A stretch of 61,232 bases of DNA, counting the filler, from Diploschistes diacapsis (lineage: Eukaryota): NCBI GenBank assembly GCA_023645945.1. It is 7 parts of 7 records of this genome, joined end to end, with 100 filler letters (N's around TTAATTAATTAA, not from the genome) between each part and the next. Parts side by side here need not be neighbours in the genome. Positions count along the whole stretch, not along the records: positions 52,600 to 61,232 come from JALAIB010001122.1; 6 more parts are not named here. One strand, given 5' to 3'. The position numbers and the translations under genes were made by a program. Shown piece by piece: positions 53,547-59,667 of the stretch. Numbering within the stretch: the first letter of the stretch is position 1; each line of letters begins with the position of its first letter. The notes under the pieces are model-generated. The model was not told the origin of the DNA. It worked only from the letters and a program-made list of their open reading frames with translations, and ran no database searches.

Positions 53547-54410
53547 TCAAGCTGCCACGCAATCAAAATACTTGGCAACTCCCTTGGCCGCCGTAACACC
53601 TTCCCGCTGCACCCTCTCCAAAAAGTCCTCACAATGCAGCAGATGCCCCGTCCTGACAACATAGTTATCGCTCAGCCTAACCCCCAGCACCGCCCTCAGC
53701 AGCTTCCGCATCGAGTAGACGCAGTGCAGCCTGTGGAATTCCGCAGACACCCACGCCCGTCGGACATCTCCGCGCAGCACGTCTTCCGGTGCCAACGCGC
53801 TACTCGTGGAGAGAGACTCGTCTGCGTGCCAGGTCCAGTTCCGCAGCCGCAGGAAATCGTCTTCCAGCTCCGTGTCAAAGCAAGGGGCCGGGTACCAGCC
53901 GAATGTCATGGCGCTCCATTTGCAGCCGGCGGCGCGGGCGCTCCCGGGTGTGTGCCCGCACGGAGAAGGGAGGGGGTGGGTGTAGTTCCAGGGCTGGGGA
54001 CGGAGGAGTTCTGCGCGGAGGAGCGGCGAGTGGATGTTTGGGAAGGCGGTTGAGGAAGAGGCGTGTGAAGAAAGAGTGTCGCCGGCATCTGTGACGGCTG
54101 CTGCAGCATCGTTTTGGTCGTGGTTCTTGGCGCTTTGGTGTTCTTCCGCTCTGCCGGTGGCGGAGCGGATAGCCAGGAAGATGAGAAGCAACACGAGGAA
54201 AGTACAGGCTGCTGAAGTGCAGACCATGAGGACTCGTATTGTCATACTTTTGCGCTTTTCTGGGAATTGATGCTTCTCGGTAGATGGTGTTGAGTCTGGC
54301 TGTCCTTCATCGTTGCTAGGATCGTCTGCGGGAAGAGAATAATAGGCCTGGCTGATCTTCAGCCTATGTAATTTGAAGATTTTGGATGGTAGGTTGACAA
54401 ATGCAATCAT
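53547..54410 (-). CDS. Membrane-anchored twin-HxxHC protein (divergent DUF3328-related, PhomB-like)
   Basis: One TM helix (VLMVCTSAACTFLVLLLIFLAI), Cys block CGHTPGSARAAGCKW...WYPAPCFDTEL, then HRLHC and HLLHC motifs. Intronless. Confidence 0.75.
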   Translation of the reverse strand: MIAFVNLPSKIFKLHRLKISQAYYSLPADDPSNDEGQPDSTPSTEKHQFPEKRKSMTIRVLMVCTSAACTFLVLLLIFLAIRSATGRAEEHQSAKNHDQNDAAAAVTDAGDTLSSHASSSTAFPNIHSPLLRAELLRPQPWNYTHPLPSPCGHTPGSARAAGCKWSAMTFGWYPAPCFDTELEDDFLRLRNWTWHADESLSTSSALAPEDVLRGDVRRAWVSAEFHRLHCVYSMRKLLRAVLGVRLSDNYVVRTGHLLHCEDFLERVQREGVTAAKGVAKYFDCVAA

Positions 54411-55304
54411 TACGATAATTGTGCCAGTAATGCACTGTGATTCTGATCAAGGGCTTCTCAGCAGTAGATGGGGAAAGAACTGCCTAGATACACAAACACC
54501 AACTGTCTGGATTAGTATATCGCTGAAGAACTCCTCATTCTACCCATGAATAGTAGACTTTGACACCTACTACATTCTTCGGCAGCTTACGTTGTTCTGG
54601 TATGCGTGTAATGAGCGCTAACATGAGCGCTCGAGCACAAGTGAACTAGCTTTACCCTTTTCGCCCGGACTCTGAACTGCTGCAGTGATGACCATGAAGT
54701 TTTACTCTTAGAGTATTCGGCCTTCCGTGATTAATTGACGGAAGTACGGCAGGGGGTTCTCTACCTCTTCATGGTGGTTAGCATTGCAAAGTGCCGCACT
54801 GCAGGGCTGCCACATATCAGCATGCAGTGGGAAAGCCAAAGCACCTAGACAACTCAAAGCCAGACTCTACCACGCACGACCTGTGCTTTCTTAACGGAGA
54901 GATCACGATGGCCTGCGTGAAAGACATGTGTTTTGCAGCAATTGAGTGTAATATCTACCTTTAGCTTTTGATTGGCTCAGGTCCACGGAACTCAGATGCC
55001 GTTCAGCCCCCAAGCACTAAGCCCAATTAAGTAAGTATTTAACTTCCTGAAGCAGCTTCATCCCGTATAGCCATAGCCATGCGGAAATGGTGTGCCATGC
55101 TGACCGACCGGTTGTTTGACTTTCATGACTCACGCCATCATAGTTCATTGATCTCCGAGCCTACTCGCGCTCAAGGCCATATCAATTTGATATTCCCCAA
55201 AGCTCCTCATTTAATTCTGATGCCCCGGTTTAAAAGACTGCAGCAAAGCTAACCTAGGCTGCTTCATACCGCTACTATACCGAACGTCACCGGACAAACT
55301 CATA

Positions 55305-56488
55305 TTACATGTTAGGCTTTCCAATGTTCCAGGGTTCGTTTAGACTTTCCCAGTAGGCATTGTGAGCAGGCCATGGGTTAGTGCCATCTTTAGGGTTGGG
55401 TATCACACCTGCCATGCTTGGTTACTCTCATGTGATGGAGAGGAGAGATCGGAAGCAGTAATCACCTGTCTTTGGATGCCTCAGGATATCGCCATGTCTG
55501 TCAAAATTGTGGTTTTGAACCCATTGAGTAAGTTTCTCCCAGTTCGCGCAAACATGAGAGCCACCCGGCACAATCTGTGGAAACGGTGTCTTGTCCCACC
55601 ATTCATAGGTCATAAGCGTCATATCAGCGTGGCACATTGCAGCCTGTCTCAGCCTAGAGCCTTGGTTTAGTAATTGATGAAACGCGAAAGTCTAACGAAC
55701 ACGGAGTAATTTCGTCTTACCCATCAAGACAGTGGTCTGCAAAAATTAGCCGCGAGATTAGCAAAGTAGGAAAGTTATTGACTAGGAGAGAATGACCTAC
55801 CAATATGAACGTTTAGCTCTCCTGGCGGATGCGGATACCGTTTAGCCGTGATCGGATACGCCTCTGGAAAGAACGATTCACGGATCGTTCTCAGACAATG
55901 AATCTCATGCAAGGCCGTTGGAACTGCCATCCCATCGTTCGAGCCATCGTTCAGGCGGACCATAGTGAAATTTGAATGGGATGGTGTCGCCCATCCTGGA
56001 CTTGGAACACGAAGGTCAAACCCTTCAGTACAGTGAGCTGGATAGACACTGAAAACGACAGAATGCCTGCTCAGCTATCGGTAGCTTACCTCTCATCAAC
56101 CTTTGCCATGCAGCATCCAGTTCCGGGCGAGGTTCTCCCCTGAACGGGCTTTCGTGATGTTCGAAGATATCGTCCATAGGGCGAAGCTCCCACTGTATTG
56201 CAGGCGCGGTGTACTCTTATCCAGCGAGTCAGTCGGTATAATCAGATAGGGAGTAGCAGCCCCACCATGCGATGGTATCTTGGGTATCTCATGGTTTTGG
56301 CGTTGCTGGTAGACAAGCGCGAGAAGAGCCGTATTGGTAAGCAAGAGGCCACAGTTCAGGACGAGTGTCATAAGATGCCATTTACCCCGGCCAAATCGGT
56401 TTCTTTTGAACCTGGCACTTTCTTCCCCCAGCAAGCGAAACGATGGACTGGCGGAAGATGATTCATCGTCGAAGCTGTGTTTCTCCAT
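55305..56488 (-). CDS. UstYa-like oxidase (DUF3328), copy 1
   Basis: Six-exon model: TM helix, SPFRGEPRPELDAAWQRL, LHEIHCLRTIR, HIDHCLDGLRQAAMCHADMTLMTYEW (built through a 16-nt microexon at 55721-55736), HVCANWEKLTQW, stop TAA at 55305-55307. Confidence 0.92.
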
Positions 56489-57570: not shown

Positions 57571-57883
57571 ATGAAGTTCTTCAGTATCTTCTATACTACT
57601 CAGCTTCTGCTGGTGTCTGCTATCGCGGCCCCTATTGCCAATGAGAACGTGAAGCTCAAGGTTCGCGGTGGTATGTATAGCCTTGTGGCTTTTTTGTACT
57701 CTGAAATAGTTGCCAAGAGAACTGAGAAGCAAACCAGAAGAGTATATGAGCATCATTGAGCGCTCCATTTCCAACCTTGCGCTTGTTAAGCGCGAGTATG
57801 AGAATGCGATTGATCCCGACGAGGATGGTTCTCTCGGTGTATGCTTGAAGGTGAAGCGTGATATCGATTCGCTCTTTGAGTGA
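57571..57883 (+). CDS. Candidate RiPP precursor peptide (signal peptide plus Kex2-type KR sites), 81 aa
   Basis: Exon 1 57571-57670, intron 57671-57737 (GTATGT...CTGAG...CAG), exon 2 57738-57883. Translation: MKFFSIFYTTQLLLVSAIAAPIANENVKLKVRGEEYMSIIERSISNLALVKREYENAIDPDEDGSLGVCLKVKRDIDSLFE*. It lies between two DUF3328 genes. Confidence 0.82.
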
Positions 57884-58479
57884 ATGGCCTATGTTATTGC
57901 AGCAGCCTTCCTCTGCCCGTGTTCGAGTCCCATGGCTGGTATTTGAGAAAAACCTTTTGCGGTACGGCTGGAACTGATGGGGAGACTTCTTTGGAGAAAG
58001 GAGGCAAATCAAATGACGCGCTCACCGGACGCCAATCAAGGGGGGGAGTAGTCGATCATTTAGAGAATGGAAGGACTTGATTGCTTTGCTGTGATAAAAC
58101 GAACCTGAAATGCTTCCCCTCATGAACTTGAGTCCATTTCGCCTTATGCTACAAGCGTACTCAGTAAGGGCTAGTCATAAAAGCTCGCATGTAGTATACA
58201 CCTAGGCTTGCAAGCTTCTTCAGTACATGGGTTCGCCTAGGTAAAAGTCAATATAATCTGATAGAGGATGTCATAAGTAATGGGCTGCCGGATCTCTCCC
58301 GTACCCAATGCTATAGTGGATGGTTGACTAGTATTATAACCTGCCCCTCGAATGTTGTGACCGTTGTGTTCCCCATCTCCGTGTCTTTCTTCTCTCCGTG
58401 ACAGCTATCTCTTCCCCTTCGTCGTTTTCTTCGAGCATCAAACCTGCGTTAAACATATCCCTTCTACAAAGACAGAGAA

Positions 58480-59667
58480 ATGTCTTTAAACTCAGAAGCA
58501 GAGTACAAGAGACTTGCCAACGATCCTTCGCAGAATGATCTAGAGGATGGCCTGTCGGAAGTATCGTTGCACGGCTGCCGAGATATGGTAATTAACCAGG
58601 GATGCTGGGCTCGATTCATCACAAAAACCGCTCTATATATATTGCTCATATCGTTGTATACGGGCATCATATTAGCAGTATCGAGGAAATATCCAGATGA
58701 TGGTGGGAGGCAATGTCGTGCTGACACGAGTAATGCAATGTACTATTGTATGTGATACTCTGTACATGTTTTACGGATTCATGCACTTACCGGTGGTTCT
58801 CACTCAACGCGTAGCGCCAGCACAGCGAGCGATGACTCTTCACAGTCGCGATTCGGCTTTCATGATTCTTCCCGGCTCGAAATTTGCTGGGAACCCGAGT
58901 CCTGAAGTTGACCAGGCCTGGAAGCATCTGCTCAAAGGTATCTGTTCTTCTCTCCGTGACATTATAGAACATACTGACACGTTTTGAAAGGAACGAACAT
59001 GCGCATCTCACAAGACACACTCACCAAACTCAATCGAAGCTCGATAGAACTTGCGGATGGATCAGGTGATTATTGGGGTTCTTTGGAGGTATATCACCAT
59101 CTTCACTGCCTGGTAAGTACCGATGCCTGGCCCGCACTGAAGTTGCGTGGACACATGCAGCTTACATGTACAAACATCTATCCTGGCAATGGTTACATGC
59201 TGAGAACCTTATCAGAAAACCATCCGTCAATACATCGCCGTTGACTATTATGGGTCAGAGAACATAAGAGTCGACAAGCCCCCTGGTGCGTTTTATCCAA
59301 CGCATATAGGTAGGTGCTCCACAAATTTCCTTCTTGGTGTTTGATTCTGTCCTCTTCCCCCTAACTTATTTGGCTGGAAATCTGCAGAGCATTGCATCGA
59401 AAGACTGCGCGAGTATCTCATGTGCGTCCCGGACTTGACAATCTATACCTACGATTGGCTGGAGGGCCGAGACGACGAACCGATGCCTAATCACTATGTC
59501 AAACATGCTTGTGTTGATTGGGGCGAGCTAGAACAGTGGGTAGAGAAACGCCGTTTCTCTTATGCCGACAAACTCATTCGAAGATCTGACGGTAATGAAT
59601 CAACGTTGTTTGACTGCTATTTGCTGACAAGCGGTCAGGAACGGTCTGGCCAGACAAATATGATTAG
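58480..59667 (+). CDS. UstYa-like oxidase (DUF3328), copy 2
   Basis: Six-exon model: TM helix, YSPA, SKFAGNPSPEVDQAWKHLL, YWGSLEVYHHLHCLKTIR, HIEHCIERLREYLMCVPDLTIYTYDW, HACVDWGELEQW, last exon GTVWPDKYD* with stop at 59665-59667. Confidence 0.92.

Follow-up and report, generated by a model that had tools for sequence, protein, structure and literature searches.

The stretch of DNA analysed here (the window, 61,232 bases from a lichen-fungus metagenome-assembled genome of Diploschistes diacapsis) holds, within one 8,633-nt contig (window positions 52600-61232), a locus of four genes. Gene A (53547-54410, minus strand) is a single open frame of 287 amino acids with the motifs HRLHC and HLLHC. 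Genes B (55305-56488, minus strand) and C (58480-59667, plus strand) are each split into six exons; B encodes 292 amino acids with HEIHC and HIDHC, C encodes 279 amino acids with HHLHC and HIEHC, and both match the UstYa/DUF3328 profile PF11807. A small gene (57571-57670 and 57720-57883, plus strand) for an 87-residue protein, with a predicted intron of 49 nt, lies between B and C; it is transcribed away from B and in the same direction as C. The first-pass annotation had placed these four features within about 6.1 kb of a single contig, and all four lie where it placed them. The window consists of seven contigs, each of ~8.7 kb, joined by paired 44-N spacers; the physical neighbourhood of the locus is 52600-61232 alone, and the other contigs are not physically linked to it. 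Six-frame translation of the window contains seven copies of HxxHC, where composition alone would predict ~3.9; of these seven, four fall inside genes A, B and C, in which two more copies are split by introns. Six HxxHC motifs in 6.1 kb, in register within homologous proteins, are not a product of chance.

Gene B is modelled from exons 56266-56488, 56090-56215, 55801-56022, 55721-55736, 55466-55653 and 55305-55408, its five introns all being GT..AG and 50-67 nt long, and in the spliced model HEIHC lies at residue 155 and HIDHC at residue 189. Most of the second motif (..DHCLDG) is encoded by the 16-nt micro-exon 55721-55736, and the protein across this micro-exon is conserved in P0023, a spliced public protein of 303 residues with which the gene B model is identical at 190 of 293 positions (65%), end to end, and which itself scores 148.7 bits on PF11807 over profile positions 7-219. 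In another public protein, P0022, intron-blind gene calling reads through the micro-exon region. Gene C (exons 58480-58747, 58815-58937, 58991-59112, 59216-59309, 59388-59591 and 59639-59667) likewise gives an open spliced model, with GT..AG introns of 47-103 nt, HHLHC at residue 166 and HIEHC at residue 201.

The profile search that the first-pass annotation had proposed was run on exon fragments of B and C, with a PF11807 cut-off of 25 bits. Three of four gene B fragments matched (25.8, 25.2 and 50.9 bits, spanning profile positions 55-92, 117-166 and 173-220), as did three of four from gene C (19.0, 26.7 and 54.8 bits, spanning positions 50-92, 91-137 and 165-220), both genes having two or more fragments above the cut-off. 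Genes C and B share 34% identity over 174 amino acids (E = 2e-32). Judged by these profile matches and by the six-exon models, B and C are genuine UstYa/DUF3328 genes and diverged paralogues, which bears out their earlier description as two intact spliced members of this family. No sequence relative of P0023 was found in the PDB. An AlphaFold2 model of P0023, built from a six-row alignment, had a mean pLDDT (predicted local distance difference test score) of 45.2, too poor for a fold comparison with gene A; both motifs start 3-4 residues into helices in this low-quality model, a placement that is unreliable.

Gene A had been described as a third, divergent twin-HxxHC membrane protein. The two motifs are indeed present behind a transmembrane helix (hydrophobic residues 63-81; HRLHC at residue 226, HLLHC at residue 256), but the protein scores only 16.7 bits on PF11807 (E = 0.0067), below the 25-bit cut-off for membership, and alignment with hhalign against B, C and P0023 recovered just 14 columns near the first motif, with a probability of 0.9%, which does not confirm homology. 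The weak profile match covers positions 129-173, i.e. the motif region, and four of the eight rows of the gene A alignment also match PF11807 below threshold (best E = 0.0032). The predicted architecture is type-II-like, with an N-terminal Y-x-L-P acidic tail, the transmembrane helix and then a putative luminal domain. Gene A resembles PF11807 UstYa proteins in its aromatic-x-x-L acidic N-terminal tail, its one transmembrane helix and its twin-HxxHC domain; unlike them it lacks ~80-100 residues C-terminal of the second motif and has an invariant block of its own, SPCG...GC.WSAMTF.WYP..C.D. Because of the sub-threshold profile score, the hhalign result and the lacking C-terminal part, we do not call gene A UstYa; by these comparisons it is a UstYa-like protein of a small unnamed Ascomycota family, not a member of the Pfam family.

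This family was delimited by a word-based search (5172 candidates), which returned six cluster representatives and the window's own protein at E <= 0.001; none of the homologous representatives has a precomputed Pfam domain. The eight-row alignment contains 47 invariant columns, including both H..HC motifs and three further cysteines. The two motifs are 30 residues apart in six of the seven distinct members listed and 32 in the other, compared with 34-35 in B, C and P0023. In the Protein Atlas, 17 unnamed Ascomycota clusters came first for gene A (score 0.94), the first named cluster being UstYa (score 0.85, 170 common features). An AlphaFold2 model reached a pLDDT of ~80-93 over residues 150-287, with each HxxHC motif near a helix start. 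Foldseek gave no match to this model at E <= 0.001, and in a wide VIA-align search the transmembrane helix alone (residues 48-106) matched coiled coils (Z = 5.3-5.6). The PDB contained no sequence relative of the family, and a metagenome contig scan with the gene A alignment confirmed none of 91 pattern matches as a relative.

In the database, the product of gene A (P0005) is 226 amino acids long and begins at an internal Met within the transmembrane helix. Orthologues of gene A align upstream of the P0005 start and have a common Y-x-x-L acidic N-terminal motif, for which reason the start at 54410, or an upstream exon, is more likely than the P0005 start. Orthologues of genes A and B also appear to recur together among the database proteins: P0016 (A) and P0022 (B) both derive from a contig of 4,769 nt, and P0006 (A) and P0025 (B) both from a contig of 13,073 nt. 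The equal sizes of the source contigs make it likely that A and B orthologues are neighbours in another organism, although the two assemblies may be of the same organism and hence possibly represent one lineage. This pairing suggests that the oxidase genes travel together.

The product of the small gene is identical to database protein P0004, annotated in NCBI as a hypothetical protein. Its two exons flank a predicted intron at 57671-57719 (49 nt, GTATGT..AG). The N-terminus, MKFFSIFYTTQLLLVSAIA followed by AP, has a signal-peptide-like shape as read from the sequence: Met-Lys, ~17 hydrophobic residues (hydrophobic window 4-22) and A-I-A before A-P. Secretion of the protein would depend on the predicted 49-nt intron, which joins the signal exon to the conserved exon. 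Beyond the signal-like region there is a helical-looking pro-region and a conserved C-terminus, CLKVKR followed by DIDSLFE, and Lys-Arg (KR) sites occur at residues 57-58 and 79-80. The profile MF_alpha_N (PF05436) scored 13.4 bits on the small protein as against a cut-off of 22 (E = 0.073), over residues 1-28 only; neither a match to MF_alpha (PF04648) nor repeated mature units were found, and the protein does not qualify as an alpha-factor-type pheromone precursor.

An exhaustive HMMER search of 1.84 billion protein representatives gave three matches at E <= 0.001, including the small protein itself. The sole true relative is P0012, a protein of 45 amino acids (E = 4.2e-8; 27 of 45 residues identical, 60%) that aligns to the last 45 residues of the small protein, ends at the same stop and retains CLKVKRDID.LFE without change; the segment before KVKR carries an aromatic residue in both proteins (EY.. 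in the small protein, DW.. in P0012). The remaining match, P0013, a repeat protein of 1,828 amino acids (E = 1.9e-5), was rejected as a relative: it matches only through a recurring acidic motif, D-Y-E-N-P-x-D. That the frame stays open to the same stop at 60% protein identity is a good indication that exon 2 codes for protein, and the GC content by codon position agrees (GC1/GC2/GC3 of 0.52/0.33/0.58 for the small gene, which is coding-like, as against 0.44-0.47 in intergenic DNA). A word-based search with exon 2 recovered only the small protein itself (one of one candidates), the best Protein Atlas score for the small protein was 0.84, to bacterial clusters and below a meaningful level, and a metagenome contig scan with the small-protein alignment confirmed none of 119 pattern matches as a relative.

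What is established is which genes are present, the families they belong to, how they are arranged and that exon 2 of the small protein is conserved. The reading of them that we prefer, to which we assign a probability of roughly 0.4, is that of a small UstYa-type locus resembling those of fungal peptides that are synthesised ribosomally and then modified post-translationally (RiPPs), in which the 87-residue protein is the substrate of the neighbouring oxidases; automated tools would probably flag the locus as "fungal RiPP-like". A, B and C would be single-pass membrane proteins with their twin-HxxHC domains facing the lumen of the secretory pathway. The 87-residue protein would enter the endoplasmic reticulum (ER) by means of its signal peptide and be modified there by the oxidases, through hydroxylation or side-chain cross-linking as for UstYa homologues; Kex2 would then cut in the Golgi after the conserved KVKR, releasing a single modified peptide, which may be the conserved heptapeptide at the C-terminus, DID(S/A)LFE, or else the acidic aromatic stretch that precedes it. 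Both the substrate link and the chemistry are proposed by analogy with the DUF3328 enzymes of the dikaritin and cyclochlorotine pathways, and we place the link no higher because most DUF3328 genes have no recognised substrate nearby.

Dikaritins are described as arising from repetitive secretory precursors that are cut by Kex2 in the Golgi, with UstYa/UstYb-type DUF3328 proteins carrying out side-chain cross-linking (PMC9233826), and UstYa/DUF3328 enzymes as acting on secretory, Kex2-processed precursors (PMC9233826, PMC12048977). The original five-gene definition of these clusters included tyrosinase, methyltransferase, transporter or peptidase accessory genes, and a later redefinition takes DUF3328/UstYa proteins with two HxxHC motifs as the class-defining enzyme (PMC12048977). 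Genes B and C supply this enzyme, at least one such protein being what a dikaritin-type cluster calls for. As in the clusters for ustiloxin, phomopsin, asperipin-2a and victorin, twin-HxxHC DUF3328 genes here stand beside one that encodes a small protein with dibasic sites and, putatively in the present case, an ER signal, and the known clusters and this locus are alike compact. The asperipin-2a cluster is a minimal dikaritin cluster with few accessory genes. The small protein contains none of the cores YAIG, YVIPID, FYYTGY and GLKLAF, as had been noted at the outset.

Several observations weigh against the small protein being the substrate of its neighbours, beginning with the protein itself. 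One relative among 1.84 billion representatives makes this a near-orphan family. The first-pass annotation had presented a small peptide gene with KR sites; the gene is there, at 87 codons and with exon 2 conserved in P0012, but only the second site, the KVKR before the last seven residues, is kept in that relative, in which the first site reads AAR (P0012 also has IVKR where the small protein has IIER). The small protein contains no repeated 4-mers, and LKV and VKR are the only 3-mers that occur twice. Several repeated cores between Kex2 sites are the hallmark of dikaritin precursors (PMC9233826, PMC12048977), which are repetitive and multi-core (PMC9233826), whereas the small protein is single-copy throughout; the repeated core that defines precursors both of dikaritins and of the Kex2-processed repeat protein (KEP) class is lacking here. 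Nor does the contig contain a coding tandem repeat anywhere, by TRF and a repeat finder. Finally, the conserved exon has a Met of its own (residue 43), which is the start of P0012, and without the predicted 49-nt intron the gene would yield a 45-residue peptide with no signal peptide.

These last points open an alternative in which the small gene is no secreted precursor but a mis-spliced annotation, a 45-residue cytosolic peptide made from the internal Met or a barely functional gene, and in which the role of the UstYa-type genes has nothing to do with a neighbouring peptide. In its favour, the 49-nt splice is a prediction, the best branch-site candidate within the intron is imperfect when set against the consensus, an alternative 39-nt in-frame reading gives a product of 62 residues (P0003) that stops short of the conserved exon, the internal Met is where P0012 begins, and the protein family is almost an orphan. 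Against this, GTATGT is a canonical donor, with the 49-nt intron the signal exon falls exactly into the conserved frame, and the public annotation independently chose the same two-exon model; P0012, moreover, was perhaps called without introns, in which case its start would be uninformative. We regard this alternative as improbable.

The surroundings of the small gene also count against the substrate reading. The 1.08 kb between gene B and the small gene (56489-57570) could serve both as a common promoter; no promoter motif is common to the three upstream regions, a k-mer comparison of which found one common 8-mer, no excess over shuffled sequences (mean 0.45, maximum 4). In favour of the substrate reading, the small gene is the only gene between B and C, where none of the other open reading frames matches Pfam. 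A Pfam scan of 29 non-cluster open reading frames of the contig (8 + 21), i.e. most, though not all, of the stop-to-stop frames of at least 60 amino acids outside the four genes, detected no tyrosinase, methyltransferase, peptidase or transporter, the sole other Pfam domain being BTB/POZ; the contig is truncated at both ends, and multi-exon genes with short exons could escape such a scan. This agrees with what had been remarked before of the contig. The accessory genes of dikaritin clusters (tyrosinase, methyltransferase, peptidase, transporter) are accordingly not on this contig, and the locus is known from its genes alone. As a dikaritin-type cluster, the label under which it had originally been put forward, the locus therefore holds up in its enzymes, B and C, but not in a repeated core or in accessory genes on the contig.

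What is known of DUF3328 genes in general points the same way. In a survey of KEPs, 31.8% of 9,399 DUF3328 counts in 1,461 fungal genomes lay within 15 genes of a repeat precursor, leaving 68% that did not (PMC7329392). Proteins of this family are furthermore used in non-ribosomal pathways, those of the cyclochlorotine pathway being reported to hydroxylate, chlorinate and transacylate (PMC12048977). It is accordingly a serious possibility, which we hold at somewhat less than even and about as probable as the substrate link, that A, B and C act on a substrate encoded off the contig, either a multi-core Kex2 precursor or a non-ribosomal peptide such as those that DUF3328 enzymes tailor in cyclochlorotine formation (PMC12048977), and that the 87-residue protein is an unrelated secreted neighbour. 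The absence of repeats from that protein would be expected in such a case, and exon 2 is evenly conserved, in the manner of an ordinary small protein and not of a conserved leader with a variable core. The mean distance between DUF3328 genes and precursor genes is 3.09 genes (PMC7329392), and the contig is just 8,633 nt long and ends in what looks like a dispersed high-copy repeat, so the cluster could extend beyond it: at ~61029-61232, the right end, contigs from public DNA sequencing runs (X1-X4) show a depth 10- to 20-fold above the rest in runs X1-X3 and many differing loose ends in all four, and this repeat probably ended the assembly. A survey of lichen genomes likewise reports DUF3328 clusters without a repeat precursor and suggests that the precursor may lie outside the cluster (PMC12048977). 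On the other side, an ER signal is present in only ~7.7% of fungal proteins (PMC7329392), and a small protein with a putative signal and a conserved dibasic site between two UstYa genes exceeds what would be expected of a random neighbour. Nothing but housekeeping-type domains turned up on the six other contigs of the window, but these are unlinked to the locus and so say little.

Under the reading in which the small protein is the substrate of A, B and C, the closest comparison beyond the dikaritins is with KEPs (Umemura 2020, PMC7329392), which resemble the small gene in their KR sites, in a DUF3328 neighbour (near 22% of KEP genes in that survey) and in an ER signal, putative in the small gene. 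What defines a KEP, however, is tandem repeats that lie between signal and KR sites (PMC7329392); the small protein has none and is not a KEP in this sense, and because it has no tandem repeats the method of the survey would not detect it. In lichens, a survey of 111 lichen-fungus genomes found HXXHC/DUF3328 signature genes to be widespread in Lecanoromycetes (Pasinato & Singh 2025, PMC12048977). The "putative dikaritin homologue" loci described there resemble the present one in carrying DUF3328 genes with two HXXHC motifs in the same class of organism, whereas Clans R1/R2 of that work are Parmeliaceae-restricted and carry either a tyrosinase and methyltransferases, or an acetyltransferase, genes absent from this contig. 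Genes with a signal peptide and Kex2 sites which "lack conserved repeated motifs" are also mentioned in that paper, and a single-core precursor is raised there as a possibility. Its supplement table includes a Diploschistes diacapsis assembly of 4,361 scaffolds; its main text contains no mention of Diploschistes and describes neither this locus, nor the gene A family, nor the small protein.

Literature on UstYa in lichens, on UstYa HXXHC proteins and on RiPPs of Diploschistes yielded no description of this locus, and our literature search returned no UstYa-dependent single-core precursor; it did return acalitide, a fungal RiPP with a single core but independent of UstYa (PMC10840396). The locus might represent a new sub-type of fungal RiPP, with a non-repetitive single-core precursor, two UstYa oxidases and a gene of the truncated UstYa-like gene A family, though we consider this rather unlikely. 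The novelty claimed by the first-pass annotation was in any case overstated, since DUF3328 genes are common (PMC7329392) and such lichen loci have already been described (PMC12048977). With the general picture for lichen genomes already in print (PMC12048977), the value of the locus is that of one well-annotated candidate and not of a discovery; two things are worth keeping, namely a candidate precursor that is conserved, single-copy and nearly orphan, and the unnamed UstYa-like family of gene A, which apparently accompanies the gene B orthologue.

Most fungal DUF3328/UstYa genes have no recognised substrate, about one third being near a repeat precursor in the KEP survey (PMC7329392). Should the 87-residue protein prove to be modified by the products of the neighbouring genes, it would exemplify a UstYa-dependent peptide with a single core, would provide a concrete precursor model for the mining of lichen-fungus RiPPs and would give the unnamed gene A family a first role. 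It would also mean that repeat-based mining (KEP searches) systematically misses such precursors, and could explain part of the DUF3328 majority that has no recognised precursor nearby.

Among public sequencing runs, the best match to this DNA is a lichen metagenome. The region of the locus is almost collinear, at ~97-98% identity, in contigs of runs X2 and X3, which constitutes weak support for the substrate reading because these relatives are so similar. DNA of X2 related to the small gene region spans 57361-57957, with nine changed letters and two gaps, and among the changed positions listed for X1-X4 (40 of 392) none falls inside the small gene. Between genes A and B, a contig of X2 has 14 bases at 54463-54478 swapped for 63 other letters, a small indel difference between relatives.

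The BTB/POZ domain occurs in an open reading frame at 60509-61096 (plus strand; 27 bits, E = 5.3e-6), downstream of gene C and with no evident link to the cluster. An Rfam search of the contig gave no match. Elsewhere in the window (1-52499), the six other contigs contain GH2 mannosidase-like, bromodomain, HLH, acyl-CoA dehydrogenase, AAA ATPase, SWI/SNF Ssr4 and fungal rhodopsin domains, i.e. ordinary fungal or housekeeping-type domains with no linkage to the locus. An exact 17-nt direct repeat occurs at 58387-58403, 77 nt upstream of the gene C ATG, and again at 58945-58961, in the second intron of gene C; by a rough estimate, chance alone would give ~0.002 pairs of this kind in 8.6 kb.

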